From: Marsupella aquatica
Lineage: Eukaryota > Plantae > Marchantiophyta
Assembly (NCBI GenBank): GCA_973895155.1
Contig: OZ316899.1
Span: 13,705,934-13,769,933 of the forward strand
Direction: 5' to 3'
Length of the DNA stretch: 64,000 nt
Below, piece by piece: positions 3,788 through 36,026 of this stretch (position 1 is its first letter; each line of letters starts with the position of its first letter). The position numbers and the translations under genes were made by a program. The notes under the pieces are model-generated. The model did no database searches. It was not told the origin of the DNA and saw only the letters and a list, made by a program, of their open reading frames with translations.

Positions 3788-3834
3788 TACCTACGCTTCC
3801 TTCCTAACTTCATATCTCACGGCTTAAGAAATGC

Positions 3835-5950: not shown

Positions 5951-6562
5951 TAAAATATCCAGACCCCCTTGCAATCGGCCACCCTCTTGGTACCCCTTCT
6001 TAATATTTTTTTGATAATTTATATTTCTCTTGTTACTTCTAAAAATCCAATTTTTGGCCTTTGTTTATATCCTTTAGTTATTATAAAATGATAAATTGAG
6101 ATAATTTAATTTACGTTGCTCCGTTATAAAAAAAATCATTCAAAATACAAGAAAAACACCCAAAGCTAACTATGATGAAAATACTTGTATACTTTTATTA
6201 TCTAAGTCTCTTTGGTATAGAGAATTCACTGATGTACTTTCTAGAATTGTATGAAAGAGAACATGCTATTAATAACTACAAGTAAATATTGTCGGCTGCT
6301 AAATCACAACCTTGTTTAGATTTCCTACATCTAGCCTCCATCGCCATTAGGATGCTCTGTTAAGCAAAGCTTTACAGGCAATTCTGCAGGCCAAAAAAAT
6401 TGATTGTAAAAGTGTGTCGGCACAACAGCACACTCATGCTCAGATCTTTCAATCCTAACTAATTATCCTACATAGCCCCTTCACACCTGACTCTAGAAGA
6501 GGAACCACAACATCACAAGCTTCTAAGCCTGTATCAAATATAGACTCATCATCACAATGAAC

Positions 6563-7035: not shown

Positions 7036-10000
7036 TTACACAATGTTGTTCCTTACAAAATTGTCGAGCGCAAGTACATCATCTAGATGTAACTCAAAAC
7101 CTGAAGGATACAATGGATCAACTGTGAAATTGACTGTTGATATGACACAGTTCAAGTCGATGATCTGAGGATCACATATATTGTAGGCAAATTTATGCCT
7201 ACGAGTGCCAATAGGAGTAAACCAATTGAAGACAACTTGACACCCTACTTCAAAACCAGGCCTATCTAGCAGATCTAGTGCTTCTCTTGATCTGGCAATG
7301 GTGCCACCATCTTCCGATGTATGCTCTGTACTCTACCAATCCACCAACCATATTTTGGACCAGGAGCAAAAGATGCAGGTACTGCTTCACCTCTTGGTCT
7401 CCTAGGATTTTGCACCGACTGTTTCCTTTTTCCCCCTTGACCCTTCCCTTTCTGTGCTCTAGAATTGGCCTCTGTGTTTCGAGTAGTTCTGACCTCTTCT
7501 GTTTCATCCAAAAAGAATACCCCATAGTCATTGCCGACTATCATGAACATAGTTGCAACTCCTTCACGAAATGTGGGTTTATCCACCAAGTTATTGAAGT
7601 ATATACTCTGCTTCACTCGGGTCAGCCGGTCCTTACTAAGATGAGGGTTCCCAACAAGCTGACTTACCAACGTACTTTTGTAGATCTCTCATCCATTATG
7701 AGTGACAGTTGGACACACTTCCTGTATGGGCGCCCCATAAACCAAGTTTGAATACATTACATTCATGGTAGCCTCTAGTTCAGCCCCAGCCACCTCTAAA
7801 TCTGGGTCTACCTCCCTATGGACCTCCCTCTCCTTGCCATTAGGAATGACAATAGGGATGACACCCGCCTGCAAGTTTGGGCCAGACATTGGGGTTGAGA
7901 TTGGTGTAGATGATGATGCAGTTCCAAGTACACTTTCAGTGGAGGTGGTTCTAGGGGTGGACTCAAGAGGTAGCGTATCCCGCACATCTACCAAGGTGTC
8001 CACATTGATATTACACCAGCCACCAAACTTGGTGCCTTTCTCCTCAACTTTCCATGGTGAATTCCACCATAGTTTGTTGTTGGCAGATGTTGAAGGATTC
8101 ATTTGCAATTCAGTGGCTGCAGTTTGAGCCAACTTGAACCCCTCTTTCAAAGTTAGGACGATATTTGCATTTGTCTCAATCCCTGTGTAATCTGATTGGT
8201 CTGCCTCTATATCAATCCCCTCTTCTGCAGGATGAAGAGTCATCCAAATGCTCTTATGCTTTTTATGGCTTTGTCCAACACCCATCATTCCCTCTGCCAG
8301 ATCCATTGCAGCCAACCTATTAAGGGAGGTTGCACACTCTATTAATTCTGCTATATCATAGTTCCGCTCATTACCCCGCATACCCCCTACCTTGGAAAAA
8401 AACTGTTCACAAGTATCTGACCCGATCAGATGTAATGGCACTGGCAGATGACGGAAATTAGTCCTAAATTGAATTATCAAGAAGACTGTAAAATGGACTG
8501 ACATCTGTATGTCCAGGAAAGTCTGCATAGGGATGCAACTCTTGGTAAAAGTTATGCTCTGTGTGTTACCTCCCACTGCATGATTACCATGGAAGCACCG
8601 TAGACGCCACAACCTGAACAAGAAACCCACTTTCCCACATAGGACAATTCACTCTCGCAAAGTGAGTCGGGTATTCATAAATATGTCCAAGTAATCAGCA
8701 CATATCCCTGTATAAACCTCAGTCCCAAGTGCCAGCTCCACCTTTGCATCCTTGCGCAATCGTAGCATCTTTAGCATGGAACTCACTTTGCAGCTACACA
8801 GCCTTTGTGCACTTGCCCAATTTTGCCTGTCTGCACGTCTTATGTCCTCCTCGTTAAGACCATGCTCTTCATGGTCATATAAACGGTAGACCTGTCTCAG
8901 GTGACTCAAGTTTGCCACCTGTGACCCTTATTTTAGGATCCGGGCAGTAGAATCCAGTGGATTAACTAGCTTCTTCCCATTGTGGATAAAATCCTGATCA
9001 TGTAGCCCTGTTGCATGCCTCAATGTTCCATCATTGGTCATGGTGTGAGTCAGTTTCCAACCTTCCCACATCAGGTTTGGTGCCCTTGGCCCTGGTACCC
9101 CTCTTCCACTGTAGTCCTCAAGCATGAGTTTTCGTCTTCGCGAATCCTCATCACTTGCGTGGCCTAGTACAGGCCCCACCTTCTCTAGACAACGGGTGGT
9201 CCACATTGAATCCATGTCACTCCACTGTCGCCTGACCCAAGGACTGTCAAACGTATTACAAGTTGACGTGCCCAGTACAGGCAAGCGAGGGAACCCCACA
9301 GCAAGGGGATTCACTATCACACACCTTGCAAGGTGCCCTACCCTTGAATTATCAAAAGCACCTATAATGTTGTTGAAGCCAACTTCTCCCTGCCACACCT
9401 CGATCTGCGATCTTGCCTTACATTCATGGTCGGTTTTTCTTCCACAAACCCAAGAAGTGTATCATCTTTAGGCAACCATCTACAAAGAATGCAAGATGTC
9501 ACTACTTTAGTGTATGTTCAAAGAACTCCACATACTTGAACTAGAGAAGTCATTGAACAGCTTTGACAAATATTCATAAGCTGTTAAAGGCAAATTACCT
9601 TACTGTCCGCTTGACATAGGTCTCGTCCTCTGCCAGAAAGCAGGGAATTGGGCCTGATATATCCAGGCGTTTTTTAATTTTAGAGTAGATCTCTGCAATA
9701 AACTTGAATTGAGATTCATGGATCCCTGCTCTGAACACTGGCATACCTCTCCTGTCTTGTTGCAGGGTGTTTAAACTAGGCCCTATTCCATTAGTGGAAA
9801 GGCAGTCAACTACACGGCGCACACCATGCAAGAACAATGTCTGGCATAGAAGCTTTGTTCCTGGCTTATATCTATAGCCTTCCTTCTCTTTGTTCAAGTT
9901 CAAAGCTATATCTGACAACATATCCCATAGAGCACCCCTTCCACCAAATGCGCCCCTTTTGTGTGCTAAAACTATTGACTGGCAAGTTTTCAAGATAGAT

Positions 10001-11790
10001 GCCTTGTTTGGACCCTGATAGTTGAGGCAGACCTCCCTAACACATGGAACTGAGGACTTAAACATAAGCAATTTGTGGCTAAGGAATCTCTGTAACTTTC
10101 TCTCTCTGCAAAGAGTATTCCTATACACTTTAGCTTGCCTCTGAATCTCAAAAACTGTGAGGTACCCTAAGCGCCTACCCTTCCCGGTCCCTTTGAAACC
10201 CCGTTTCTCAGGGGCTTTATCTTCTCTTGATACCCTTTGTCTAAAGTCGTCTAATGTTTGTATGGAAAAACATTTTGAGCATGTCAAATCTTCAAAACCA
10301 CCCCCTTCTTGTGAAATTTGCCTACATTTGGAATGTCTGAATAAACCCATGATCACACAAGTCTCTTGAGTGGACAAACACCACACCTCTACCCTGACCA
10401 GAGGCTCTGCAAACCAGTTCCCCTCTACTTTGACTTGGTCGTTCAAGACTCCCTTGATAGGCCTGGATTCTGAACCATATTGTACCTCATCCCGCCATAG
10501 ACCCCAACACAACAGTGATAAGTTATCAATAATACCTCTGTCATTGTCTGCTGTAGGCACCCGAGAGGAACTGCTGGAGGCACCTGCAGCGGACGAACGG
10601 CTCAAAAACCCCTGGATTGTCCGTTGTTTGACATCCCTCCTGTCCACAGTTTGGGGTCTTCCAGGACGTCCTGACATAACAGGTTTGTTTCTTGCGGGCC
10701 TCTGACTTTTTGTCACGTAATCAAGATGACTTAACCCACTACAATGAGCGTTCAGGTTGGACTCCAAGTTCCGTTGCTTTGGTATCAATGACATGTGGCA
10801 CAGACAAAAGTTGCAGAAAAGCTTCAACCTCTGCAGCTCCACCGGGTCCTTCTGAACATCACCCACGACAGTAAATGTATCCTGACCGACACTCTGGGAC
10901 TCATTGACCTTTGCCACAATGCTCAGATGCTGGTCTAGTATGGCTCTATCACTCATACTAGTAGCAAGAGCCCTTCTACCAATCTCTCATGGGTCCACAG
11001 TCTCACCCCTGTTTGATGCAACATGGGCTGCATGCTTGGATGAGCGCAAATGCTTGCTCTTGTAGTTTGTGAAAGCATTGTTGATGGATGTCTTATCCAT
11101 CAATCCTCCCTTTGACGTCCCCTCCACCCGAGTGTCACACTCACAACACTCAAGATGTCCCCTTGGCAGGTTGTCTTTGTCCCAGGTTTTGACCTTCCAT
11201 TTGTGGTCACCACATTTAATGGACTCCATGTAAGCCAACAACTTCTCCACAGATGATGTCCATACTCTGTTAAGATCATTGGACATCACTTCTAACAGAA
11301 AGGTGACTTGTAGATCAGGCTCAGGCTTAGGCTCAGATGATGGAGCCCCAAAATCTTGAGTAGGGCCCAATTCCGGTTTGTCCATGATTGGAGAAGTGGC
11401 ACGCTCGTCACTCTCCGTCCAGGAGGGCCCATTTGAGGTATTGCTGCTTCGGAGGACTTGATGCGGTCCTATCAACACATTCTGAATAGAGCATCACTAG
11501 TATTCATGGGGATGATAATGATCTTCCCCCCAAAATCCTCAATGAGATTGAGTTTCTCCCATTTTCTTTGCATTCTCGTATTGAGACTGACATCGATAAA
11601 ATCAAAGTCAAAGTCAAACTATGACTCCAACTTTAGTCTGACATCAGCAAAATATTTGCCTATGAGGTAGCTATATGATGACACAGGCTTCCGCTACCCA
11701 CCTTCTGAGTCTACTTGAAATAATGTGGTGGGCGGCATTCTACCACACCCTCTTCGGGAGCCCTATGCACCTCACATGGGCCTGCAAACA
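7036..11790 (-). pseudogene. P-element/THAP9-like DDE transposase with N-terminal zinc fingers, intron-containing, degenerate
   Basis: Co-linear motifs AEDET, GHASDED, DFIHNGKK, DRQNWASAQRL, GSDTCEQFFS; CxxC...HxxxxxH fingers in ORFs 10987-11478 and 9595-10956. 5' limit approximate; further exons possible to ~12900. Confidence 0.75.
9480..9598 (-). other. GT-AG intron (119 nt) in the transposase gene
   Basis: AG|GTAATT ... TTTGTAG|A; splicing restores KRTVRWLPKDDTLLGF. Confidence 0.8.
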
Positions 11791-14659: not shown

Positions 14660-17282
14660 TCAATCCTCCTGAAGTAGTGCTGACTGGTCCGGTTGTTGAA
14701 CTCTCCTGAATGTCTCAGTTCGAATCACCTCTCGAAGGAAATCCATAACTTGCGTATCATGTCGAGCGAATGGAAGAGACCTGATTTGTCGTTCAACATT
14801 TAGAATGGGAAGTAGTCTCCTGTGAAACATAGTGTTCACCTTGCTAGCTTGCATATAGATGCCGACCAAATCATAACTACAACAAGTAGTATGGTAGTTG
14901 CGTGGAAACTTGTTGATGAAGGTGTCAGAGTCCTTGGCAAGTGATAGAAGTGGGATGACATGAGGTAACAGTTCTCGCCATTTCAAGGTGTAATCAGTCA
15001 ATCGCTGGGAAGTAATGTTGTTCCAGATTCTCTGACTCTCAGCAACTGGTGAGATAAATTGTTGAACAATAAAAGGTTTCTCTGGTAGGACACCATGGTC
15101 GACCTGATATCGTTTGTTGGTTTGTTTGTTTCAAAAAGTTGATGATGAATTCCAAAACATAGGCAGGTAAGTTCCCGAAGTATGCCAGGGCCAGATCTCC
15201 ATTCTCCAATACAATGTGTCCAACCAAGATTATGACAGCAAGAATAGGGCGAAAATATTTAGCCTCTGTCCAGATCTCATCCATCTCTGCTATCTCTAGG
15301 CGGGTGACATCCTTCAAATGAAGCTTCAGGATATAGAGACATTCAACTCTCTTCTTATGATAGTACTGCCAAAACTCAAAAATGGGAGAGTTCTAAGGTC
15401 TAAAACTCTAACAAACTCAACAAATTGTGTAATATTCTCCTGAGGGGTCTTAGGGTCAATATGCAGTGTAGGGATGAAATTGACCTGGCAGGATTTATCT
15501 TGACCTGGTGGAAGGGTGTCAGGATAAGAAGTGGTAAGATGTTCACCTGTAGGGGTGATCTCAGGTTCTGGAAAACTAGGATAGAGCTGGTCTGGTTGAT
15601 TCGAAGGACTGTAAGGAGAGTTGGGTGAATGACTGGAAGAAGGGGAAGAATAGTAAATGGGAGAGCCAGAGGCTGAGGTATGATAACGGACGGCATAATA
15701 GACTTGCTTCGGGTTGCATCCAAAAATCTGTGTAAGCCTGTGGACTAAATCCTCACAATATTCTCGATGATGATCTCGGGTAAGTAAAGCTGATGTCTTA
15801 TGCAGAAGATCATCCAAGACATCAATTAAGTGTCTCTCATCACACTCCAGCATGTTAGTCATTTTATTAACAAGAGTAGAATGGTGTTCAGCAGAGTGAC
15901 CTGGGGAAGCAGATAGTGTCTGTTGGAGCTCTAACCTGGGTGATGCATCATTTTCCTCCATTGGTTCAGCTTCAGCAATATTTGTAACCCTAATATTGGA
16001 GGTGGGTCGAAATAGCTCCATCATCTCAGGATAGAACTGAGTAGGACCTTGGGTTGGAGAGTATGGAGAGTCGGGACTACTAGGTTCAGGCAGAGTTACA
16101 AAGGCTGCTCTTAACTTCTCAATAGAGTCAACTATCTCCTCAGGTTCACAGATCAATAAGTTGCTTAACTTATCAATAATTTGCTGATTAGATTCTACTC
16201 TCAGTTCATCAGCCGTTGGTTTGTTGAACATGAAGGGTCTCTTACGGGATCTCATAGAAGGGGTCAAGCTGTCTACAGATAAATTCTGAGTTGGGACTGT
16301 GGGTGATCGAAGAGTATTAGGGATAGATATGTCAACTACAGGTACAGAAGGTGGGGACGTTCCTACTGGTTCTGGTTTGGATGTATACTCATCAAGATTG
16401 GAATTGAGGGGGGTGTAAAGTCTTCTATCCTGATTGAGATCTTCGAAAGGGGATAGTGGGTTATCAGGAATTGGTGAAGAGGTTCTTCTGGGTTCCACAA
16501 GTGGTTCTCTATGGGTAAGAGGGGTAACCTCTGAACAGATAGGTGGGGGAACCTCCGGTTGGACTTCATCAGCATCTTCTCCTTCAGTATCCTCGTTTCC
16601 TGATTCACTAAGATCAAATTCATCAAGCAGTCTGATCCGCTCCTCTTGTTCGCCTGGAAGTAAGCAATTCCCATGAAAGTACAATTGGCAAAGATAAGAA
16701 GGGAGAGTAGTGAACTCGTCCATTTTCACCTTCTTTGCTTGAGATAAAATAACCTGTCTTAGCAACAAGGCCCAATTTATCTGAGCAACTCCCTTCCAAC
16801 TTGCCACAATAGTATTGGCAAGTGACATAGGTATCATATGTGGTCGAATGGGATGGAGAATTGGAATCAAAAACTCTAAAATGATTTTAAGAGTATAATC
16901 AGTGCACTGGTCCATTTTCCATCCATGGCGAACGTTTTGAGTTCCAGAAAAATAAGGCCTCGCAATCTCCCCTTGTCGTGAGTGTAAGCTGTCGCCTTCG
17001 GCGGGACAGTCAAAAGCATCAGCAACAAATTGCAGAGTCCAGAATTCTGGATTCGCCCGACAGTTCCCACCATACCGACTTCAATTCGTGCCCCATCACT
17101 GAAATCCTTCAGAAACTCAATGAAGTTGCAGACCAAGGCAGAGTGAGTAATTTACTCAGGTGCATGACTGCCAGTGCTTCCTTCAAAATGTGCAAGCTTC
17201 TTTTCATCATAGGGTATGTCACAGGGACGGCCTTAGGTAGAGGAACTCCTCTCGCAGTCATCTCTCCCCCTTCGTCTGCCAT
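14660..17282 (-). pseudogene. TE-associated gene with N-terminal PMD/Transposase_32-like (LPW) domain and Pro/Ser-rich middle
   Basis: Chained ORFs 17109-17297, 16876-17136, 15326-16915, 15039-15317, 14660-15001; LLTLPW, C-x7-LEFLIPILHP, INWA motifs parallel the solo-LTR ORF. Confidence 0.65.
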
Positions 17283-17345
17283 AGTAACAAGAAACAAGGT
17301 GTTGTCACCAACTATCGATCCAAAGAGAGCAATGCCAAGTGATCC

Positions 17346-17469
17346 GCCGTTGCGCTTTCGCTCTGTTGTGCCTTTGCTCCGTTGCGCTGTTGCGCTTTTC
17401 CGCCGATGCGCCGTTGCGTTGTTGCTCCAAAATGCCGTTGCGCTGTTGCGCCAAAACGCTCTTTGCGCC
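17346..17469. repeat. Degenerate GCCGTTGC/GCTGTTGC/GCCTTTGC 8-mer array upstream of the gene
   Basis: About 14 degenerate units, same orientation as the 14449 array. Confidence 0.85.
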
Positions 17470-18123: not shown

Positions 18124-19019
18124 TGCTGTACCCCTGTGTTACCTCGGTGACAGAAGACTCTTTGACTGTAAACTTCAATTCACAACTTGCACAACGCCGA
18201 GTCCAACCACCTGCACACATCAGATGTATTTGAGTCATTAAACCCAAAATGTAAGCACATGCAATAAATCAGTTAGCTATAGACAAAGATAATATGGAAG
18301 ACCAAAAACCAGCACCGAGAGAATGTAAATGAATTACCAAGGTCTCACGGCTGACTTTTCCAAAAGTCAAAGCTCACTCCGCTATGTAATCCTCAACCAA
18401 GAACTCTTCTGCCGCAAGCAATAAATACCAGATTGTTATGAGTTAAAGCTAACCCTAGATTTAACCCTAAGTACATAGGTAAGGAGCGGTTATAGAACCA
18501 CCTTCCTATAACGTCACATGTGTATCTAAAATTGATATCATTAGTAAATGTTGGAGGTTGGAGTATCTTTTGGCTATGGTATCCTCCTTGTAACACGTTA
18601 TCAACACGTCTCATTTTTTTTTAACAATAGATGTAGGCCACAAAAAAGAGGAAGGATTGATGTGACGCCGCCGGTACGGCGGTTAATGAGTGATTCGGTC
18701 TAACTGCGCTCGGCACGCGCGTTAGGAGTGTCTTAGGCCGCTATTATTAGCATAACGACAGTATTTAGGTAATCATTATGGGTAGGATATCATTAGGCAA
18801 TAAGGGGGAATTCAAGTTCGGACTGGCGGCTGGTCGCTATTCGCACACCCGGGTTACGAGCGTGGAGGGGCCCCTCCCTCGGGTCTGTATAACGAACTTA
18901 AGGAAGCGACCACTGACACGCGCTGACTCAGACCGGCGGAGTGGCCGGCACACCACAAGCGTGAGCGGTTCAGCCTATGGGCGTCGAGGGGACATCGGGG
19001 GATCGACAAGCCCTCAAGG

Positions 19020-19026
19020 TATAAAA
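19020..19026 (+). promoter_or_regulatory. TATA box of LTR B
   Basis: TATAAAA ~100 bp before ATG 19128; conserved in copy 2 (~46333-46339, minus strand). Confidence 0.65.
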
Positions 19027-19127
19027 GGGGAGCCAACCCTTTGTAGTGCACCAGTCCATCAGTCCACGCGCCAGCTTCGACCCTAGCTCTCTCATTCGCT
19101 CTAAGTCGCCACTACTATCTCCTCTGA

Positions 19128-21764
19128 ATGTCGCACATGATCCTCTCCAGATCGGCCATTCGATTCTGGACGCAGTTCCTATCTACCGGAAGGCACTTGG
19201 CCGACTCATTGAAACATGCCAACCCGCGCCGATACGAAATCGAACGCGAGTACGAGAGAGCCATCCGCCTAGCAGGATGACACCACTACATCCTTAACTT
19301 TGACTACCCGTCTCAGAGCGAGCTTTATCGACCAGCAGAGGTATCCGGGTACTTCTTCAACGAAGACAAATATATCGGGTTCTGGGAAGCATTGCTTCGG
19401 CTTCCGGACGAGGTCTTCAATATCCCGGGTACGATCGACTTGCAACGACATCACTTTGACCACATCCCTGCTCAGGTTTGGGCTATCATCAACAGCGAGT
19501 CCAGCTCTACCCGTTTGACAAGGTCGTCTGCACTCGCTTTGGAGAACTTCTACCAGCACCTACAGAGCTTCATAGGAACTCGGCCAGCAACCAACATGAC
19601 CAACTCAGTCGTACCCGTACCCGTACCCATACAACCTCAGGCTCAGCTTCAGCTTCAGCCTCAGCCGCAGCCTAGCCAAACCCCACCACCGATCGCCCAG
19701 CCAGCACAAGTACGCTCTGTCATCAACGCTGTGGATCTTAGCGATGACGACGAGGCTACCCTACCTTTGACCAGGCGGCCCAGAGGAACAAGCGCTCAGG
19801 GGGCCGACACTATATCGTCCCCACCCCCTGCTCTGACCCCAGGAGCGGCCCCGGCAGACAACATGGTGACCGTGGCCGACCCGGGCCCGTTACTAACGGT
19901 AGTGGCACTACCCAGGCCCGATCGGGAGGATGGGGAGGTGTCACCTTCCCCGAGCCAGTCACGGGGGAAGAAGAGGAAGGAATCCGCCACTGCATCCGGG
20001 TTACCGTTGGCCACGGTAGCCGTGGCCAAGGTGACGATGCACCGCATGGGGGAAAACGTTCACAAAAACATCCTCCATCCCAAGCATGCGGTGTACCTGA
20101 AGACTCAGGGATTCGAGCACCTCGCCTCCCTCCCCTGGAACACTTGCAGGTACTACGGGGAGGACATGACGGAGTTCGTCAGGAATTATGATGATGCGCG
20201 TCAACATACTCGGCTGCGGGGAAGGAGTATGTCCCTCACGGAAGAACGGCTCAGGATGATCTTCGGGTTACCCGAAGGTGACCATCGAGTCGAATCACGG
20301 GCTCTCGGGGGCAAGGGAGCCAAGTACCAATCTTCAAGTTTTCCCTCAGAGGGAGCAGTGGACAACGCGTTTGTGATGAAGACCTGCCTCATCCCCGAGA
20401 TAGCTGAGCGACTGGAGTTCCAGAGGTACGCCCTCCACATGATGGAACCACGGGGGGAGATCTCCGCCGCCCAGGTTATCCAAGTCGAGAACTATCGACC
20501 TAGGAGGTGGGCGTCGTACTTCGCTAAGAAATTCCATGAAGAGATGGAGCAGCGAAGGAAGACGCTGTACATTGGCGGGAAGGCATATTTCGCTAGCCAC
20601 ATCGAGATCATTCTTGAGTGGTATGCCCGGTTTGATCGACGAACCCTTCCCCGTGTCAACGTTACAAAGCTGGTCCCAGCTAGGTGGGTTTTCCCGGCCT
20701 TGGAGAGACGGCCCCAACCCGAGGCCCGAAGTCCAGCGGACATGCCAGCTTCATCCACCCCACCTCCACAAGTAGCTGTAGTCGTAACCGAAGAGGTACC
20801 GGATGGGTCGGTCATCGCAACCGTTGATGTGACCCAACAAGCCGGGCTAAGTACAGAAGTCGGTACGACGGAGGTCTTACCCGAGCCAGGGTCTCCCAAA
20901 GACCCACCGGTGGCTATTCCGGAGAACCGGACATTGCTGTAGGAGGACACTCCAGCCCCTTCCAATGTTACGTCCCCAGGGCTGGACGTCACTGCCTCGG
21001 CCCCCGCGCGTGTTGATGTCTGCCCGTGCCCAACTCCGGACAGGCACAACCTGGACCACCCGGAACTCTTCGTACCGGGTACATTTCTGAACGGGCTTCT
21101 GGGAGATTTCTCTCATCAAATTGCCCGGGATACCGGGGAGTTCATGGCCCGGAAGGTAGCCTATTTCTTCAATCAGGAGTTGGTTGCCGCAGTAAAGGCA
21201 GGTCGGGCCCAGTCAGAGGCCCTTCAGAGGATAGAGCGGTACCGAGTGGAGTCCGTGTACCTAAAGAACGAAGTTGCAGCTCAAGAGGCTGAGCTTCTGC
21301 AACTACGACCCAAGGTTGCAGCCGCCGATGAGTTGTTAGCAAAGGCGCACGCTCTTACCGCCCTAGCCGAACAGGCCAAAGCTGGGAACGAGGCCGAGAT
21401 TACACGACTCCGGAACCAGATTGACAGTTTGAAGAATCAAACTGTCACCTGGCAGAAAGACCTGGAGGAGGCCGAGGAACGGGCCCAACGGGACACGGCG
21501 GAGATAGCCACGCTGCAGGCCAAGGTGGCGCGGCTCCAAACCGAGGCCGAGAAGCAGGACCAGCTGGCGGGTAAACTGACAAGTGACGCCCAACAGCTGG
21601 AGGAGGCTTGTCAGGAGGCAGCAGAGGAGACGGACGCGGCGAGGTGAGAGAACGAATCTCTGCTGGACCAGGTCCAGCTCCTCAAGGCAGACAATGACAG
21701 GCTTCGAAGGCAGCGGGATGGCCGCTCCCATTCGGGCGGCTCTGGCAAGCGTTCCAGGCATTAG
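19128..21764 (+). pseudogene. LTR-embedded 878-codon gene (PMD-like domain + coiled coil), three point stops
   Basis: Single frame from MSHMILSRS to KRSRH*; stops at 19278, 20940 and 21645 are each sense codons in another copy. Confidence 0.85.
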
Positions 21765-22798
21765 CAGCGGAGTAGGAATAGATTAGGATTAGGACTGGCT
21801 TAGTCAGGCTCTTGGGACAGGCACCTGCCTTAGGTACAGCAGCGCTGCCGTGCTGTCCAGCCTGCGTAGATTAGGATCTTCTAATAAGACACAGTCGTTT
21901 TCCGGCCTGACTGTCAGCTTAGTTAGGACCTTAGTCAGCGAATCTTCGGCGAGAGGACACCCCATCCCTCATCCCTTAGTATTTAGTGCACCCCTCGGTA
22001 GAGGCAGGGGGGTTTTTAGTTGCAGAGTTGGGCGTCCGCGGTATGTGCGGGGAGTCCCGACCTCTGGGAATGAAAGAGTACCAAGGGGAGGGGGTAGGAC
22101 TAAGCTCGCCGGGTGAGTGCGGAGCCGGGCTCCGTTGTAGTGTGCACCCTCGGCCTTGAACCTGTCGGGTCAACTAAGTGTATGCATATGTTCCCTTTGT
22201 AGTAAAATCCTTTCCCATCATTTTCCTTCGTGTAAATCGAGATTGTATGCATGTGCGTGTGTATGTGTGTGGGTTTCTCGTATATGGGTGGCAGCGCCAG
22301 GCCGAACGCACTACCCGAGACGTGCACAGGGTGCAGCCTGCGGGTAAGTGGTTGCGAGCACGGGTTGAGGACCTGTATCATCGAATCCGGATCGAAGGCG
22401 GACAGCACGAAGGCTTAGAAGCCCTTAAGGCGGGGTCGATCCTGCTATCGACTAAGGTACGTTCCGGCGGCGGAACACAAACCATACCTAGGAGGTGTCC
22501 ATATTTAGCAGTATGCGCACTTAGCGCTAGTTTACAAGAATAAGGTGCATTACGTGCTTCCCTTCCTGCCCGAACCCTCAGATTTACGAGGGATGTGCCC
22601 GTCTAAGCTAAAGTTTGAGTTAAGGCCGCAGCCGATGACGTGACAATTGAAATCGGAAGAATTTCCATTCAATCAAAGAATGAATCGCACGAATTGAAAC
22701 AGCAAAAGTTGCACACAAAATATTGAAGAATATACATTAGGATACTCTCAGATTGAGCGGCAAAGAAATTGAAGGTGACTACATCGATAGAGGCAACA

Positions 22799-25700
22799 AT
22801 GTCTCTAGAAAAACTTAGCTTCCGAGAATTAGCCATTGACGGATCAAATTATTTAACATGGTCAATGGATATGGAGGCCCACTTAGCCGCTAAATCCCTA
22901 CAAGACTCAATAATCACTGACAATGGGCCCACACTTCAAGAGAAAGCAAAGGCACTCGTTTTCATAAGGCATCACCTAGCTGATGCCTTAAAAACTCAAT
23001 ACCTAAACGAATACAATCCGAGAGTGTTATGGGATGAATTGCAACTCCGGTTTGATCATATGTGGCTAATTTCCCTCCCAGCGGCGAGACACGATTGGAT
23101 AAATTTAAGGGTCCAAGACCACAAGACAGTCGCCGAATACAATAGTGAATTGTTTCGAATCGTATCACAACTCACGGTCTGTGGGCACCCGGTAGACGAT
23201 GTTGAGCAGATCGAGAAGACCCTGTCAACATTTCATGCAGCAAATTTGGTATTAGCCTCCCAATACCGGAACATGGCGTTCACAAGATACTCCCAGCTAA
23301 TTGCACATATGCTATTAGCCGAGAAGCACCAAATATTATTGCTTGAAAACTCAAAGACAAGACCCCCAGGTACTCTCCCGCCCATACCAAAACCTGAAAC
23401 ACAAGATAACAGTCAAAACCAAAGGGGATACAGGGGGAGGGGTACCTTCAGGGGGAGAGGTGGACGTTTTGCAGGTAGAGGCAGAACCCAATTCCAAAGA
23501 GGAAGGGGCGCAGGAAGCACGTATACCCGCCCAAACAACCGGCAACAGTGGCAAAATAGAGAAAATGAATGCGGCAGAGGGAGAGGAAGAACTAACAACA
23601 ACGGCATATCAGATAAGAGAAACAACCCTACTAAATGTTTCCAATGCGGTACACTTGGACATGCCAGAAAAGATTGTAGAGCCCCCTCACATCTAGTTAA
23701 ACTTTACCAGGACAGTATTAACAATTCCCCCAAAGAACCTCAGGGAAACTTCCTTGAATTACCACAAGACCTCACACAATATGTGACTGAACCTGCTTCA
23801 CCTGAAACATACATCACTACCCATGGCAAAAACACCACCTACCTAAAAGACCCAACCATTTGTATACTGGACAGTGGCACATCACATACCATCTTAAAAG
23901 AGAGAAAACACTTCAGTCACATCCCACCCTCATCCCGAACCATCACCACGATCTCTGGCCAGAAACAGATTGAACATGGCCACGGACCAGCTACTGTCAT
24001 ATTCCCGAGAGGGACAGTCATCCACATCGAATCAGCCATATATGCACCCTTAGCCACCAGAAATTTGATCAGTTTCCAAGATATAAGGGCAAATAACCTG
24101 CATATTTATACAAGCATACAAAACAGGAGAGAAGTCCTTCAGATTATAAGAAAACTGAACCTCCAGGATTGTATGTCACAAGAATACAATCACACTATAC
24201 AGAACCTAGCAAGCAGAACATATCCATCACCTGGCATAACCACCTGGAACACCCCGGGACAACCATGTACCATAAAATTATTAAAGACTCAGTGGGTATA
24301 CCGCCAGCGGCAAAAACACCCACACAACAGCAACCCTGCCTAGCATGCTCACAAGGCAAACTTATAACTTGCCCATCAATTACAAAAACGGTATATGCTA
24401 TCCCCAAATTTTTAGAACAACTCAACGCTGATGTCTGTGGCCCTATAGAACCACCTAGTGGCCCCTTTAGGTTCTTCCTAGTCATGATCGACTCATCATC
24501 TAAATGGTCACAGGTGTCCCTACTATCCACAAGAAATCTAGTATTCTCACAAATTCTAGTAAATATACTGAAGCTGAAAACGCAGTTCCCGGACAACCCT
24601 ATACGAATCCTCAGAGTAGACGGAGCAGGAGAATTCACCTCAAATACATTCAATGATTTCTGCCTCACAGCTGGGATAGAAGCCCAATACCCTATCCCAT
24701 ATGTCCACTCACAAAATGGGATGGCAGAATTCGTTATTAAACGATTACAACTTATTGCACGCCCACTATTGATGCAAACCAAATTACCAGCCACGGCATG
24801 GGGACATGCCATCCTTCATGCAGCATCCCTACTACAGTACAGGCCTTCATCCTTCAATTCCCTGTCCCCACATCATCTAGCATACGGCTTGCCACCAGAC
24901 GTTTCCCACCTGAAAACATTCTGATGCCAAGTACTAGTTCCCATCTTGGGACCTAAACGAACCAAGATGGGTCCCCAGCGCCAAATAGGAATTTACGTAG
25001 GCTTTGATTCCCCATCTATTATAAGATTTTTAGAACCTACAACAGGAGATGTCTATAAAGCCAGATTTCAGGATTGCCACTTCTTCGAAAATATTTATCC
25101 AAAACTAACAACCAGAAAGCAAGAAGACTCAGTAATAGTACCTCAGCTAAAATGGGAAACAACATCTCTACTACGCAACGACCGAAGGACAAAACAAGTA
25201 GATGAAGAGGTAAGACGTACCTTACATTTAAACCAGATGTTGCACACATTACCTGACGCATTCAATGATGCTGCTACTGTGACCTGCTCCCACATTGAGG
25301 CTACCAATGTACCAGCACAAATTCAACCTCAACAAACAGAAGCAGTCGATGCCCCACCAAGAACTAAGAGGGGCTGCCCCCTTGGAGCTAAAGATAGTCA
25401 ACCTAGGCAGAAGAGGAATGCCATCCCTACAACTACCACACAGAATATTGACAATACCAGTGAAGAAGCAATAACAATCCCATCACAGGACAACAATGAA
25501 ATCTCCATCCAGTATATGCATACAAGAAAAGTGTGGCAGCCAGCATATACCAAAGTCGATGACCAATTCGCCTTCCTCATTTCACATGAAATTACTAACG
25601 ATACCCCTGATCCACTTACTGTATAGGAAGCCCAGAACAGAGAAGACTGGCCACTGTGGCAGGAGGCAATAAATTCGGAGTTAGATTCGCTCATCAAGAG

Positions 25701-27485
25701 ACATGTATTTGGCCCGATCTCACTTGCCCCACCAGAAAGGAGCCTAACGGGATATAAATTCACCTTTGTGCAAAAAAGGAACCCGAAAGGAGAGGTCATC
25801 AGATGCAAAGCTCGACTGGTGGCGAAAGGATACACCCAGATTTATGGTCGAGACTATAACCTCACGTACTCCCCCGTTATGGACTCAATCACATACCGCT
25901 ATATGATCGCTTTTGCCCTGATTCACAAACTAGTAATGCACCTTATGGATGTAGTCACGGCATACTTGTACGGTATTATGGATACTGAAATATATATGCA
26001 CGGCCCCTCCTGAACTAATTACAAGAGTCAAGTTTCATATTCAGGGGGAGAAAACCCGCAACCAACATCCAGACCTGCAATCAGGCCTTAAGCAGATCAC
26101 GGCCAAGCCAAACAAAGGACCTACTGTCCAGAGCACTCATGGGATACGACCCCAACCTAACCAGCCTACAGCCGGGTTAGAAGCAAGGGAAGCTCCTACC
26201 GAGTCCTTGAAATGGTACCAAACAAATAAGGGAAATCCATCCCCAAAAGACAGTGGACTTCATCCACCCCAACATGTCAATCAACAAAATAAGAAGCAGA
26301 TACCAAAGCCAGCATATGCAGTACAAGTAATGAGATCAATAAACGGCCTCAAACAGAGCGGCCGGATCTGGTATAAACGCTTTCGTGATGAAATGTTGAC
26401 TTTACAGTTTACAAATGCAGACATAGCACCCTGCCTATTTCTTAAACATGTTGGCACAGAGTTTGTGATACTCGCCATCTACGTTGATGACATAAACATT
26501 TTTGGAACTCACAACACAACAGTTGAAACACTCAAAAGAATCTTTGAAATGAAAGATATTGGAGTCCCAAGCTACTGCCTAGGCATCCAGTTTAATCATC
26601 TCAAGAATGGCATCCTCATTAACCAATCTACTTACACAGAAAATTCTTAAGCAGTTCAACATGCAGAATTCATACCCGATGAGCACTCCAATGGACCTGC
26701 GTTCTCTTGACCCAGCATGAGACATGTTTAAGAAACGCCAAGAACATGAACAGGTGCTGGGACCAGAGAAGCCATACCTATCAGCGATTGGAGCCCTACT
26801 GTACCTAGAAAATCAGACACGACCTGATATCAACTTTGCAATAAGCCTTCTAGCAAGTCATGGATCACAACCAACAATCCGACACTGGAATGGCATAAAA
26901 AGAGTGTTCCTCTACTTACAAGGAACTACGGATATGGGACTATACTTCCCCAAGAAGACCAACCCGACCTTGACTGGATATGCCGATGCCGGGTACTTGT
27001 CCGACCCAGATGATGCGAAGTCCCAAACGGGATACGTTTTTCTACAGGGCATAACAGCGATTTCTTGGAAGAGCATGAAGCAATCACTGACAGCTACATC
27101 ATCTAACCATTCAGAAATTATAGCATTGTATGAAGCCACAAGAGAATGCGTGTGGCTCAGAAGCTTAATTGACCACATCAACCAGAACACAGGCAAACCA
27201 CCACTGTCGGAACCGACCATTCTTTACAAAGATAACCGACCCTGTGTGGACCAGATAGCGCAAGGCTTTATTAAAGGGGACAGGATAAAACATATTGCAT
27301 CGAAACTATTCTACACACATGAACAACATGGAGATAAGATCCAAGTCCAATGGATATCCACAAAAGAAAATAGAGCCAACCTATTCACGAAGCCCTTGCC
27401 GCCCGCCCTCCATAAAGCGCATACACTCGGGATAGGAATGCGCCAGTTAAAAGACTTACTACGCCAAGACGCAACACAAAATTAA
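22799..27485 (+). pseudogene. Copia 1 gag-pol polyprotein
   Basis: Zinc knuckle, LDSGTSH protease, DVCGP/RVDGAGEF/QNGMAE integrase, YVDD RT, GYADA RNase H. Confidence 0.95.
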
Positions 27486-27896
27486 GACAAAAGGCGCAAG
27501 CACTTATCTCTTCTCACCAAGACGGACCTGATGACTACACACCATCGCAACCTCGCAACAGCAACGTCCCAACACCGCAGAGTTCCCAGCGACCTTCAAC
27601 TCTGGACTTTGCACCCTAAGAAATCCACCCAAAAGAGAACAACGCCTGACTTCAGAGCGCACGACCTTCAAAGAATACATTGTTCTTTATCGAGAGAAAC
27701 CCTTCACTCTGTGTTGAGACTCCAATGCCAACACAACAACTTCGACACTGCTCAGCCAAAGTTTACGCTTTTGACATAGAGCACCCTTTGTACTCTACAT
27801 TAGACTCACAAATTGTTTTAGATACTTAAACTCTAATTAGTCCTAACTCTCACTCTTAAACCTAGTACCCCTTTAATTAATCCCACATTATGTAAT

Positions 27897-27951
27897 GGTT
27901 GTGGCACTCTTTCCCTTATAGCCAGAAGAAGGGTTTTGATGAGACCAAACC
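27897..27951 (+). other. ENE-like U-rich internal-loop stem-loop, Copia 1 3' UTR
   Basis: CACTCTTT-CCCTT..AAGGG-TTTTGATGAG with paired flanks. Confidence 0.7.
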
Positions 27952-28202
27952 AACAATAGATGGGACCTAATACGGCTTACACTTTACATTAGTGTGGTTG
28001 ATTTTTACATATACACAAATCAACCAAGGGGGAGTGTTATGAGTTAAAGCTAACCCTAGATTTAACCCTAAGTACATAGGTTAAGGAGCGGTTATACAAC
28101 CACCTTCCTATAACTTCACATGTGTATCTAAGATTGATATCATTAGTAAATGTTGGAGGTTGGAGTATCTTCTGGCTATGGTATCCTCCTTGTAACACAG
28201 AT

Positions 28203-29946
28203 CAGTATGAATCAACAACTACAGATTTGAACAATGCAGTAGAGCACCTCTAGCAAAAGCATAAAGCCTAACAAATCAGGCAAACATTACAACTTTGCAA
28301 AAACAGCCAAGGAAAAGAGTTCACCTTCTCTTCCACCTTTCGGGTTTCTTGACAGTCACTTCTCTAGCACGAAGATGTTTCCCCAACGCTTGAATACACA
28401 GGAATCCCCGCAATGACCTCAGTCTGCAATGTCCTTCACTCCGCAATGCCTTGCACAATGCCTGGAAAGACAACATTCCAACCCTTAAGATTTCAAACAC
28501 ACAGAATTGAGCCACATGCACTGTAGAACCCGCTGTAGAAGCAACCTATGCAAATAAACCTGTTCTACATGCGACTGTGCAATCCCAATCCTAGGACAGT
28601 GTTTGGCTCAATAGCTCTAAAACATATTACATGGAGGAAAAATGCAAATGTTCATAGGTTGCTGCAAGAGCTCATGTCAACCTAAGCACGGTAGACCTTA
28701 TAACACATGACAGAATACAACAAACCAACATAGGGAGAATCTAAAAGAATTACCGACCTCAAGTCTGAAGGTTGATCTTCCTAGATTGTGGAGGCTCACC
28801 CCGTTTATCAATCGTCAACCAAGAACTCGTCTGTCACAATGTTCAGACCTCATTAGGATGGTGCAGATTATCTATACTTGGATGGTTTGAACATTAGGTC
28901 TCTTTTAGCATAGAAGCCTTAAGAATCCAAGTAAACACTCCCGGTAAACACTACTGTAACTATTTGGAAAGAGCCAAGGAAAAGAGTTCACCTTCAATCA
29001 CACCTTCGGCCCCTTCCCTCCAATGAACTGAGCCTCAATGCCAAAAAACAGAGAAATCCCTTGGATCACCTCAGTCGGGGCCCCCCAATGCCCGAAACAA
29101 ACAACAATCGGCCCCTACAATCACCGACACCCACAGGATTGAAGTGCTTGCAGAAAAAGAAGCAATCTTTGCAAAACAATTGCTACACATGAAATCCCTC
29201 TCATGGGAGGGGTATGGCACGCATGATAGTAAACAGGAAACAAGTTTACTACCAGCAAAAAGTTACTGTTACCAAGAAAAATAACCATGTCAAAATATTT
29301 TCTAAAATGTCACATTTTCCAAAAAAATATTACATTACAACATTTTTTGGCTAGCTTTGGGCGCTAATATAAATAAATAAAATATTGAAAAAAATTTCAA
29401 AAAAATTTCAAAATAAATTGCCACCCATTTTCCTGTTACCAGTTTCTGTTTGTTGTTACTGTTTGATGTTTCCTGTCGTTTGTAAATACCCCTCATGGGA
29501 AGGTGTGCGGCCAAATAATGGTACAGTGAACATGTTGAATGTAAATGTAAAGGTCAGGGGTGCTCACATATGCTTCCACCTTCTTGTCTTGTCGCCGCTC
29601 TCCCTCCAAATGATGGAACCCGCAATGCCAAGAAGAATACTGAATGGATCCCTAAACCACAGAGAAAAATTCACAATTAACTCTGAGAACTTAAAAATGC
29701 CAAATACATATGGTCACAACATGTCTATGTGCAAAGGTCGGGGGTGCTCACCTTCAATTCCACCTTCTCGCCTTATGAGTGCTCCCCAACGATCGACGTT
29801 GCCCCCGATGCACAAAAGAAAATCGAATCACTGGGATCACAACTGCGGGTCTGCAAAACCTGCCGATGGAAATGAGCCAACTGATATTCACATTCTACTT
29901 CTCAATTTGCGCTCCCCTCCAATCAATGGAGCCCCCAATGCCCCGC
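28203..29946 (-). other. Duplicated, apparently non-coding upstream exon-intron units of the 17725-18123 gene
   Basis: Repeated donors (GAAG|GTGAAC at 28324 and ~28991; GTGAGCACC at ~29568 and ~29750); the 28735-29000 unit matches 18318-18433 joined to 28203-28340. Confidence 0.55.
29209..29492. mobile_element. MITE (Mutator-like?), copy 1
   Basis: GGGGTAT...ATACCCC ends; TSD TCATGGGA (8-9 bp). Confidence 0.85.
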
Positions 29947-31087
29947 CACTAGTAGAAACCGAGGAGTATTTAGACCCCATTAAATGACTATTCACTATTC
30001 AGTACCGTATAGGACTTGGAAACGACTGGGAAGGACTCTAGTCCTTTATAGGACTGCGAGTCGTATGTTTTGTTACTATAATCAACTGAGTCCTTTATAG
30101 AACTAGTTTATAAGTCGTTTAATAGACTGGACTTTCAGTCTATTGTAGTCTTTGTGTGGGTAGCTTTGGTGAGTCATTTTCAGTATTTTATGGGCTGCGA
30201 TGGTGAGTCATTGGGAATGACTAAAAAGGTTATGGAGGGTAGTCTTTAAATATACTTTGTGGGTTTATAAAACGACTAAAGTAGACACTTTGTGGGGTAT
30301 GTATAAGTCTTTCATGTCAACTGGAAATGAGTGATGAAGACCCCACTATACTACTTGGAATGAACTCACTCTTGTGCACAAATAACACATTCCATTCATG
30401 TTTTATTGTGTACTTGGAATGAACTCACTCTATAAGCTCACCATTCACCATGTTAACATTAGAACACATAGAGTTTCAGAAAGCCATCTTCTATACCATG
30501 TACACTAATATGAATTCACAGATTCAAACATCATAGACTACAAAGAAGGTCACAAAGCATTCGTCTATACCATACACACTAATACTGAAATGATACAAAA
30601 CAGATTCAAGTATCATAGACAATCACCATAGAGCCATAATTTGACATCAATCACTTGTTTCATACATACAGAATTCAAAAATATACATGTCACACACAAC
30701 GGCTCCTTCATCCTCTTTACCAAATGGAAAAATTGGTACATGTTAGAATATATTTAACCCTTAGTCCATATGATACAAAGAGGTATGCAATACCTAGATA
30801 TAAAGAGACACAAGACTAGGAGAGGGTAGTTACAACTACCCCAATGTACAACATATAATAAGTCACATTGACTTAAGAGAAATTCAATCATCTTTTGTTG
30901 GTGTATATATATTTCATAATTTAACACGTTATCAGCACATGATTTTGCTCCTCCAACAACTCTCGAGCTACTCATAGGCCTCTTGTGAATTTTTTTTCCT
31001 ATTTCTTGTGAACGAAGCATCGAACGAAATTCCCCAAGACACATTTTCTTTTCTTTCGCCAAGTACACCACAAAATTTTCATCGACT

Positions 31088-34000
31088 ATGACAACATTGG
31101 AGAAGCTCCAATTCCCATTGCTCGCAACAGATGGCGACAATTATTTATCTTGGGCACAAAATACAGAAATTGTTCTCAACATGAAAGGCCTCGGCGACAT
31201 TATCTTAGCAGATATCAATGGCACATTACAACAAAAGGCTCAGGCACTATATATCATTCGCCATCACCTCGCTGCTGAACTTCAACTTGAATACCTTACA
31301 GAGTTTAATCCCCGAGCCCTATGGGACGCTCTCAAATTGAGGTTTGACCATCTGCGTCTAATTTCCCTACCAGCTGCACGAAATGAATGGATTCATTTAC
31401 GAGTTCTAGACTACCCTACAATTGCCAAATTCAATAGCGCCTTATTTCGGATAACTGCTCAGCTAGCAGCCTGCGGCGAACCAATTGATGAAGCAGCAAA
31501 GATCGAAAAGACTCTATCTACATTCTCAGCAGCAAACATGCAGTTATCGCAGATTTATAGACAACGCCATTTCACCCAATTCTCAGATTTGATTGCAGTC
31601 ATGCTCCTGGCTGAAAAGAATGACCTCCTCCTTTTGAAGAACTCTCGCGAGCGACCACCAGGCACGCTTCCTAAACCGGAAATACAATTGACGAATACCA
31701 ATAGAGGTAATTCCTCTTACAACCGACCTCGTGGCCAATTTAAAGGCAATCCAAGTCGTTTTAATAAATTCCACAAGAGACAACAATTTCGCACAGACAA
31801 AGGCAAAAACTTCAAGCCCCCCATGAATTCTTGGTATCGTAACCCCAATCAAATGCCAAATAAACCTGCACAGAGTTATCCCACAAATAATCAGCCCAAG
31901 TGTTTCCGTTGCGGTGGGACAGGGCATATCCAAAAGAATTGCAGAGTTCAAGCTCACCTAGTCAAACTATACCAGGCCTCCCTCACAACATCCAACACCT
32001 TAACAGCCGCACATCACTTGGAGATCGATGACGATCTCTCCAAATACACGCTTACACCTCCCCCATCAGAGGTTCATATAATATCACATGAAGTAAATGA
32101 CACATTTCTCGCCGGTGCTGATATTTGCATTCTTGACAGCGGCACTTCTCACTCAATCCTAAAAGACAAATGTTATTTCCAGCACATATACCCATCAAAT
32201 AGACCTGTGACTACTATCACAGGTATAAACCAATTAGAGGAAGGCCATGGACCTGCCCAACTTACCCTTCCTCAAGGCACAACAATTAAAATTGCATCTG
32301 CCATATATGCCCCACTCGCGACACGGAACTTACTAAGTTTCCATGATGTCCGTCAAAACAATCTCCATATACGCTCTGCACCCGACAACCACATAAACTC
32401 TCTACAGATTTTTCGAGAAACTGATAATGGCCCCATCACACTAGAGACATTACCACTCCATCCCCCCGGCGTTTATGCCACTAAGATCATGTCTTACAAT
32501 TCCCAACGACAACAATTATCCCCAACAGAATTATGGCATGTCCGCCTCGGCCACCCAGGCCCAGGGATGTACCATAAAATTATGAAGAACACCATTGGCA
32601 TACCAAAAGGAGTACACCCATCCACGAAGTTAGACACTTGCATCCCCTGTGCACAAGGCAAATTTATCACTCATCCAGCTTCCACTAAGAACACCTATCA
32701 AATCCCTGACTTCCTCTCACAGATCAATGTGGACGTCTGCGGACCTATTGATCCACCAAGTGGACCATTTAGGTTTTTCCTAGTAATGATATGCTCCTCC
32801 ACCAAATGGTCCTCTGTTTCTTTAATTTCCACAAGAAACCTTGTCTTTGCCAGACTGCTAACACAGCTTATACGTCTTCGCACTCAATTCCCTGACTCTC
32901 CTACCAAAATAATTCGAATTGATAACGCTGGCGAATTTACATCACCAACATTCGATGACTTCTGTCAAGTCCTGGGCATCACAATTCAATACTCAGTACC
33001 ATATGTACATTTCCAGAATGGTACTGCAGAGGCATTAATAAAACGTTTACAGATGATCTCAAGACCTATGCTATTACAGACACAACTCCCACTGACAGCC
33101 TGGGGACATGCTATACTCCATGGCGCTGCACTACTGCGATATAGACCATCGGCTTTTAATATTTACACACCACACCAACTAGCATATGGCTCTATACCAG
33201 ATATTACACACCTGAAAGTGTTTGGCTGCCTTGTTCTAGTACCCATTCTTGGCCCCAAGCACACCAAGATGGGACCACAGCGTCGACGTGGCATCTATGT
33301 TGGCTACGACTCTCCCTCGATAATAAGGTATCTCGAACCCACCACTGCTGATGTGTTTCGAGCTCGATACCAGGACTGTAAATTCTGTGAAGACATCTTC
33401 CCAACACTTCTAACTCCAGCACAACTCTCCAAACAGCCTGTCTCAACACACACATTAGAATGGACAACAAAGGATCCATTCTGGAATGATCCTCGTACTC
33501 AATTGACAAACGATGAAGTGAAACGCATTCTGAATCTCCATCAAATTATGGAGAAAATACCTGACGCATTTAATGATGCTACAAATGTAACGAAATCACA
33601 TATAGATGCAGCCAATACTCCTGCGAGAATTCATATACCAGATACACGAGCCACAGACCTCGCTCCCAAGGCTAAGCGAGGCAGACCTTCAGGTTCCAAA
33701 GACTCTAGACCACGACAGAAGACACCTGTATCAACACATTTATCCTTACAATTACCACCAATTATACAGGATGACAATGAAGAAATATCCATCCACTATA
33801 TGCATACTGGACATTTATGGCATCGAAATTTAACTGAACCAGATGAGCATTTTGCTTTTCTTATATCCCAGGATATAACTAAAGATTTACCAGAACCTCG
33901 GACAATTAAAGAAGCACAACAACGACCAGACTGGCCCAAATGGAACTCTGCTATTAACTCCGAGCTTGATTCTCTGATATCTCGCCAAGTTTTTGGAGAA

Positions 34001-35761: not shown

Positions 35762-35968
35762 CTTCCCCACCTCTTCCATAAACTTCTTATTCCATTGCGA
35801 CTCGACAACACTATGTTTCCCCACGATACTTCCTCTGTTCTATGCATATTCTACTGAACGTATGTTCTCCATACTCGAACACTTCGACACATCCTATCAA
35901 ACACTCGTTTAAATTTAGCCATACATGATTACACTCCTTTCTTACTAGTTTTAACTCATTACATGTAA

Positions 35969-36026
35969 GGTAGTGACACTCTTTTTACCCCAGAAGAAAG
36001 CAGGGGGTTTTTAATGAGGTCATACC
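35969..36026 (+). other. ENE-like stem-loop, Copia 2 3' UTR
   Basis: GGTAGTGAC-ACTCTTTTT-ACCCC..GGGGT-TTTTAATGAG-GTCATACC. Confidence 0.75.

Follow-up and report, generated by a model that had tools for sequence, protein, structure and literature searches.

A 64,000-nt window of contig OZ316899.1 from the liverwort Marsupella aquatica, that is, the whole stretch of DNA analysed here and the basis of all position numbers below, consists of retroelements nested in one another, comprising a pair of copia elements, a number of gypsy fragments and one long interspersed nuclear element (LINE). Set into these are three copies of a ~4-kb unit with TG…CA ends that carries an 878-codon gene and is likely a solo long terminal repeat (LTR). 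The copies and the main parts of copy 1 are located as follows.

18661-22645, + strand: copy 1 of the TG…CA unit, likely a solo LTR; 3985 bp, inserted within a copia element's 5′ leader
18656-18660, + strand: left target-site duplication (TSD) of copy 1, ATTGA
22646-22650, + strand: right TSD of copy 1, ATTGA
19020-19026, + strand: TATA box (TATAAA), the sole one on either strand of copy 1 and conserved in copy 2
19128-21764, + strand: accessory gene of 878 codons, broken by three stops (codons 51, 605 and 840)
43201-47070, − strand: copy 2, of a diverged subfamily; 3870 bp, with a 5-bp TSD, within a gypsy gag
59358-61814, − strand: copy 3, 95.5-96.5% identical to copy 1, without the promoter and the 5′ half of the gene

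Copy 1 starts with TGTGAC, ends with GTGACA and lies ~60 bp past the 5′ LTR of its host copia element (18434-28197), which has a 5-bp TSD of its own and whose LTRs differ by four bases and one indel in ~162 bp. Copy 2 is flanked on both sides by TCGCA (TGCGA on the + strand) and is heavily damaged by seven stops private to it (in 701 aligned codons), by frameshifts and by a ~150-codon deletion; upstream of its TATA box it carries a ~370-bp insertion (46550-46905) that is AT-rich, has a short flanking duplication, is 69% related to 29250-29459 and resembles a miniature inverted-repeat transposable element. Copy 3 has a deletion corresponding to copy-1 positions 18862-20401, two additional stops and one frameshift; since its two flanks differ it has no TSD, although the TG…CA ends of the unit are kept. 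TG…CA ends together with a duplication of 4-6 bp, the criterion for a solo LTR, are thus seen in two of the three copies (1 and 2). The ends of the unit form imperfect inverted repeats of ~7 bp, self-BLAST detected no terminal direct repeat, and Pfam recognised no gag or pol family in the read-through protein. An original prediction, made from the letters of the sequence, had described TG…CA units with 5-bp TSDs (ATTGA for copy 1, TGCGA for copy 2) devoid of terminal direct repeats and gag/pol, with a TATA box at 19020 and a single reading frame at 19128-21764; the duplications are exact, and every element of this description was recovered.

For each of the three stops in copy 1, one other copy has a sense codon. 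The claim that these stops are sense codons elsewhere therefore stands to that extent, but not across all copies, as stop 840 is common to copies 1 and 3. The five synonymous differences noted between copies 1 and 2 are all present (codons 2, 6, 11, 15 and 18). Pairwise Nei-Gojobori estimation with bootstrap, excluding codons with stops or gaps, yielded a ratio of nonsynonymous to synonymous divergence (dN/dS) of 0.20 for copy 1 vs copy 2 (confidence interval (CI) 0.16-0.25, 692 codons) and of 0.22 for copy 1 vs copy 3 (CI 0.10-0.43, 449 codons); this comparison across copies, proposed along with the original prediction, thus indicates purifying selection. By region, dN/dS between copies 1 and 2 was 0.27 at the N-terminus, 0.52 in the second linker, 0.20 in the coiled coil and 0.08 in the core, the last being a rough value because the dS of the core (1.7) is near saturation. 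Along the gene, dS between these copies ranges from 0.38 at the N-terminus to that same 1.7. The 880-bp non-coding 3′ part (21765-22645) diverges by 0.16 between copies 1 and 2 as against a gene dS of 0.98, pointing either to constraint on the 3′ part or to recombination and mosaic subfamilies. The 878-codon frame is a real gene under purifying selection, and the protein it encodes is almost certainly functional in active elements.

HMMER, run in full over 1.84 billion representatives, retrieved relatives of the protein in 43 clusters at 50% identity (E ≤ 0.001). One cluster member, P0045, is a stop-free protein of 906 aa that is colinear with residues 13-877 (28% identity, E 6e-95), the alignment taking in the basic C-terminal tail. 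The original prediction was to fail if dN/dS were ~1 and the genome had no intact copy; dN/dS is 0.20-0.22, and P0045 is an unbroken full-length relative. Among 20 representatives looked up, all six homologs with a named organism belong to the liverwort Calypogeia fissa. Word-index protein searches returned no match to the protein and are uninformative: one missed even the query's own cluster, whose representative lies outside the length range, and another was confined to proteins of 1587-4530 aa, so that the lack of gag-pol fusions in it is weak evidence. Locus scans found no loci for the core in viral contigs, for a terminal motif in metagenome and genome contigs, or for an alignment of the distant family (A5) in metagenome contigs.

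The protein combines an N-terminal domain and a core, both conserved, with linkers of low complexity and a coiled coil; a basic KKRK motif at residue 281 precedes the core, in which the basic positions R391, R428 and R442 are conserved. Its domains map to copy 1 as listed.

19128-19520, + strand: helical N-terminal domain (about residues 1-125), conserved across distant families; model pLDDT 81
20001-20666, + strand: core domain (residues 292-513) with a predicted VANC21/DUF1985/PMD-like fold
21228-21722, + strand: predicted coiled coil (about residues 700-865), followed by a basic C-terminal tail; sub-threshold Pfam matches, colinear in P0045

A model of the core built from 34 sequences reached a pLDDT of 92 and a pTM of 0.88. 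Its top PDB match in Foldseek was the VANC21-DNA structure 9lnj_A (probability 0.99, TM-score 0.52, E 0.011), with the next match at E 4, and alignment of the core to VANC21 by VIA-align gave a Z of 7.8 (root-mean-square deviation (rmsd) 4.1, 199 residues aligned). In a Foldseek-independent search of 48,161 PDB chains VANC21 alone reached Z ≥ 5, scoring 7.7 with an rmsd of 4.0 over 196 residues, while the runner-up scored 2.6. The score is moderate, yet the modelled likeness spans the whole core domain and stands alone. Among ESM Atlas neighbours of the core, unnamed streptophyte clusters came first and DUF1985 and PMD clusters stood at 0.87 (one 14% PMD), which we treat as a lead only. The core had no match at E ≤ 0.001 in BFVD, and its profile gave no fold match against PDB sequences, the rows listed being coiled-coil matches. 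Pfam likewise reported only coiled-coil matches on the protein, all sub-threshold. For the N-terminal domain Foldseek found no fold match in the PDB (121 rows at E ≤ 10, best E 2.2), a result from Foldseek only that does not imply a new fold. The original prediction had guessed at a chromatin or anti-silencing protein, a guess that gains a specific fold match in the predicted core.

Several indirect lines of evidence make the unit very probably an LTR, likely a solo one. Depth in four public runs climbs steeply at both unit ends and is high throughout; in run X1 it is about 4e4-4.6e5 in bins (mostly) inside the unit and 270-660 in two outer bins. Contig depth does not equal copy number, but values of 14,870 for a 57-bp X1 contig and 4,999 for a 150-bp X4 contig, against 16 for a locus-specific X3 contig, suggest that the family has hundreds of copies. 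An X3 contig spans the 3′ junction of copy 1 with zero differences, X3 possibly being the source sample itself, and one X2 contig joins the flanks in the host copia without the unit, as expected for an insertion. Among the loose-end flanks (24 of 1073 listed), a purine-rich stretch of 13-14 nt before the TG is common to at least nine X3 contigs (organism A) and at least four X5 contigs (organism C), the two runs coming from different organisms and studies, while at least four further X5 contigs have unrelated flanks before the TG. An LTR end characteristically shows such a mix of one shared flank and other, unrelated ones. In addition, the non-coding 3′ part shares two motifs with a region elsewhere in the window.

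21982-21992, + strand: non-coding motif 1, shared with 4439-4449 (−)
22461-22490, + strand: non-coding motif 2 (hairpin of 6 bp, loop of 4 nt, and a tail), also present at 4085-4112 (−)
3857-6000, − strand: related LTR-like region with a 5′-truncated coiled-coil open reading frame (ORF), motifs 1 and 2, and a CA end at 3857

Both motifs occur four times in the window, namely in the three copies and at 4449-4085 (−), compared with shuffle means of 0.00 and 0.05, and in the latter region their order and strand are as in the unit. The hairpin of motif 2 folds in all three sequences tested, the windows being no more stable than shuffles (z −0.3 to −0.6). Directly after the region at 3857-6000 (−) follow a TGG-containing site resembling a primer-binding site (PBS), then gag-pol (3787 to 133). 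This element (about 133-3790) has gag, zinc knuckle and reverse transcriptase in gypsy order; reverse-transcriptase motifs alone would place it among the non-chromovirus Ty3/gypsy lineages (Athila/Tat/Ogre/Retand). About 380 codons of the coiled-coil ORF are visible, a possible second LTR-borne gene judging by its position. The depth profile, the shared flank and the motifs shared with a region preceding gag-pol thus make the unit most likely what the original prediction had taken it for, an LTR.

A number of observations pull the other way. Motifs 1 and 2 were chosen after comparing the unit with the region at 3857-6000; the local alignment of the two is modest, scoring 46 where 200 shuffles had a mean of 29, a standard deviation of 3.6 and a maximum of 46; and the coiled-coil ORF of that region has no detectable homology to the 878-codon protein. 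No full-length element with two unit copies was seen in the window or in the public-run contigs, and no pol cognate to the unit was found. A tRNA-type (TGG-type) PBS is absent on both sides of the unit in the few contig flanks, and a self-priming match of 10 Watson-Crick pairs is absent from four flank candidates (best 6-8, the shuffle level). Finally, the flank after the CA opens with a C-run, which looks like a polypurine tract when read on the opposite strand, in two X3 and two X4 contigs.

If the unit were not an LTR, it might be a self-standing non-autonomous element carrying an accessory gene alone, for example a DNA transposon derivative that is Ginger-like or akin to Mutator-like elements (MULEs) of the VANDAL type. 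That none of the three copies has an attached internal region, that the fold match is a DNA-transposon protein and that the unit ends in ~7-bp imperfect inverted repeats would all fit. MULEs, however, make TSDs of about 9 bp, and a one-sided conserved flank in two organisms is unexpected for a DNA transposon; the 3′ motifs recur in a region preceding gag-pol. The unit instead combines an exact 5-bp TSD with TG…CA ends, the rule in most plant LTR lineages (PMC6317226). We consider a non-LTR element improbable. The C-run flanks bear rather on the strand of the LTR, as in these two-plus-two contigs, from two organisms, they amount to a G-run followed by TG on the minus strand. An LTR of that orientation could have taken a Retand/Grande-type antisense ORF into its U3 through a new polypurine tract between pol and the ORF, with the TATA box at 19020 as the antisense promoter; antisense TRP28 ORFs with SMC-like coiled coils and a promoter of their own are typical of Retand and Grande (PMC7264820, PMC11963269). 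Yet the plus-strand purine flank before the TG appears in more contigs (at least nine plus at least four), the motifs at 3857-4752 lie on the same strand as the PBS-like site and gag of that region, and the minus strand of the unit has no TATA box, all of which makes such a capture the less likely option. The Del-type att consensus (PMC4029996) did not discriminate between orientations, and overall the sense orientation is only moderately favoured over the opposite strand.

Three layouts of an LTR of this kind can be envisaged. With the TATA box at 19020 as the genomic promoter, R plus U5 would extend over ~3.6 kb, as in the original prediction. Should the box instead be a promoter of the gene itself, this gene may lie in U3 by analogy with sag of mouse mammary tumour virus (MMTV); a second TATA box was not found in copy 1. 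If the element lies on the other strand, the gene would be a captured Retand-type antisense ORF. The mechanistic question raised is whether a 3.6-kb strong-stop DNA is copied in reverse transcription or the LTR has two promoters.

VANC21 of the Arabidopsis transposon VANDAL21 (PDB 9lnj/9lnk) resembles the unit's protein in its predicted core fold (Z 7.7-7.8 over 196-199 residues) and in being a transposon accessory protein with a coiled coil (PMC13547354). The two differ in sequence, with 10-12% identity and no Pfam DUF1985 match on the unit's side, and in architecture, the unit's protein having an additional conserved N-terminal domain. Moreover, VANC is a gene of Mutator-like DNA transposons that is called dicot-specific (PMC13547354) and its targets lie in tandem motif arrays, whereas the unit has TG…CA ends with a 5-bp TSD, contains no transposase frame and, outside the coding sequence of copies 1 and 2, shows no such arrays. 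Neither its sequence nor the type of its element places the protein in the VANC family, although it may well work like one of its members.

VANC proteins bind short motifs and demethylate their own elements (PMC5735166). Their DUF1985 domain is reported to share its fold with the PMD of MAIN/MAIL, and VANC21 has a coiled coil, while MAIL1, MAIN and MAIL2 oppose Polycomb at motifs (PMC13547354, bioRxiv 2024.09.27.615353). Against this background we favour, with a probability of roughly 0.55, the view that the 4-kb unit is a solo LTR of an abundant liverwort Ty3/gypsy family and that its selected gene, with a predicted VANC21 DNA-binding fold, likely shields the family's copies from silencing. 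Taken step by step, a DNA-binding chromatin factor is probable; a specifically anti-silencing one is a tentative proposal that we put somewhat below even odds. Each full element would hold two gene copies, and the protein would enter the nucleus via its basic motifs, oligomerise via its coiled coil and bind motifs in the family's own DNA, resulting in relief of silencing; formation of a solo LTR would leave the entire gene behind, with selection acting on active elements.

Part of the evidence stands in the way of this proposal as well. The VANC21 match has a Z under 8, an rmsd of 4, only 10-12% identity and a Foldseek E above 0.001, and Pfam gave no PMD, DUF1985, Transposase_28 or ATHILA match (PF10536, PF09331, PF04195, PF03078) when the core was scanned at E ≤ 10 (zero families) and 22 homologs at E ≤ 0.1. 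The non-coding DNA of copies 1 and 2 holds no VANC-like array of 8-9-mers, with an 8-mer occurring there at most three times, and every copy of the gene in the window is broken. An LTR-borne protein of the PMD/DUF1985 fold could instead serve LTR promoter activation, integration tethering or the handling of element RNA, since a shared fold shows no function, the roles of retrotransposon PMD and TRP28 proteins are called unknown (PMC7264820, PMC11963269, PMC5418596), and MAIN and MAIL1 were originally described as silencing factors (PMC5418596); the missing motif array would agree with such another role. The characterised relatives of the fold (VANC, MAIL1/MAIN/MAIL2), however, oppose silencing at motif-bearing DNA, and the unit has an observed-to-expected CpG ratio of 0.83-1.06, above the 0.44-0.70 of five element regions in its neighbourhood, a difference confounded by GC content and age. 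We regard a role other than counter-silencing as a credible minority option. Solo LTRs might also stay functional in their own right, as a source of the protein for host or family. With gene, TATA box and 3′ region all inside the unit, a fresh solo LTR would be a complete transcription unit, and in mammalian genomes sag copies are mostly found in solo LTRs; orthologous sag LTRs, though, show no selection after insertion (PMC4667437). In the window, stops interrupt the gene in all three copies, and two of these have frameshifts and large deletions in addition, a decay which argues that selection acts on active elements. Since dN/dS between independent insertions mirrors mostly the transposing lineage, the low ratios are no evidence for the upkeep of solo copies. 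The further suggestion of the original prediction, that solo LTRs keep expressing the protein, therefore finds no support in these copies, and we find a lasting contribution of solo LTRs unlikely. The strongest form of the counter-silencing proposal, in which liverwort gypsy LTRs carry a sequence-specific VANC-like anti-silencing gene and every LTR, solo or paired, is both its source and its target, is possible but speculative.

As the probable accessory ORF of a plant gypsy element, the gene has counterparts in Gypsy PMD-A, the Ogre PMD ORF, the Retand TRP28 ORF and Athila ORF-1, and some Retand ORFs also combine a globular domain with an SMC-like coiled coil. Those ORFs lie in the internal region, 5′ of gag or in the interval between pol and the 3′ LTR (PMC7264820, PMC11963269, PMC6317226), as the original prediction had stated for Ogre, Retand and Athila and as the literature confirms, whereas the present gene is enclosed by the TG and CA ends of the unit. 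They are, besides, angiosperm ORFs, while the unit's protein lacks their Pfam domains and has its named relatives in a liverwort. A gene carried by an LTR is known from MMTV sag, which resides mostly in solo LTRs, has a dN/dS of about 0.29 inherited from the active virus and is served by a U3 promoter (PMC4667437), compared with the single TATA box of the unit. Sag, however, is a mammalian betaretrovirus superantigen, and no relation to it surfaced in the searches, which involved no direct comparison. Regarding size and ends, Retrosat2, RIRE3 and RIRE8 have LTRs of over 3 kb with TGTnAC…GTnACA termini and many solo LTRs, and Ogre-type LTRs reach about 5 kb (PMC3485330, PMC6317226). With LTRs of 3-5 kb known, 4 kb is long but precedented, and the unusual part is the coding content: in the available parts of these papers, long-LTR gypsy elements have their ORF0 upstream of gag-pol and apart from the LTR, and no long gene within the LTR is reported. 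The literature searched, which took in few subscription papers, contained no gene inside a plant LTR, and the available parts of two liverwort genome papers (PMC12885004, PMC9985172) do not mention an LTR-borne gene.

While plant gypsy elements with accessory ORFs are already known, as are genes borne on an LTR such as MMTV sag, a predicted VANC21-like core fold in a protein encoded inside a plant LTR-like unit is new. What accessory ORFs do in plant LTR retrotransposons is treated as an open question (PMC7264820, PMC11963269), the origin of the PMD fold in Gypsy elements or host genes is called fully open (PMC5418596), and VANC is presented as a dicot-specific descendant of MAIN (PMC13547354). 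Finding a predicted VANC-like fold in a probable liverwort retrotransposon family touches both accessory-ORF function and PMD-fold origin, and, if the model is right, offers a testable candidate for a retrotransposon-encoded anti-silencer. Being inside the LTR, such a gene would be missed by annotation tools that seek extra ORFs only between PBS and polypurine tract. If the proposal is true, VANC-type counter-defence would extend from eudicot DNA transposons to bryophyte retrotransposons, the PMD/VANC fold would sit in mobile elements close to the root of the land-plant tree, which would favour an origin of MAIN/MAIL and VANC from retrotransposons, and elements would carry their own counter-defence within the terminal repeat.

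Next to copy 3 lies another gene belonging, as a distant member, to this protein family.

61816-62860, − strand: N-terminal domain and start of the core (core independent E-value (iE) 1e-10, N-terminal domain iE 5e-5)

This gene is cut off by copy 3 and has no continuation past it. Nearby are a TATAAA at 62881 and, at 63214, a purine run followed by TGTTAC; from this arrangement, it may belong to another ORF-bearing LTR. A 584-aa orphan frame at 15326-17080 (−) matches the core weakly in a profile search (iE 0.001) and has, by BLASTP, no similarity to the protein; preceded by a tandem array of 8-bp units at 17341-17468, it may be an accessory ORF of still more distant kinship that comes with a motif array.

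Concerning the remaining elements, the gypsy element at 41624-57126 (+) has a TGG-type PBS after its 5′ LTR; copy 2 interrupts its gag, and the LINE (about 52000-56150, −) lies after its pol. A motif common to one loose end and the window near 51985 was dropped, as the site appears to be part of the 3′ end of the LINE. Four long frames at 7689-11493 (−), two of which were scanned and had no Pfam match, possibly represent a decayed DNA transposon. Lastly, a young copia element at 30741-36301 (+) has LTRs of 186 bp that are identical to each other and a gag-pol that is open over 1334 aa before a single stop, and shares with the copia element hosting copy 1 a PBS of the CGTTATCA type, which we take to be Bianca-like.

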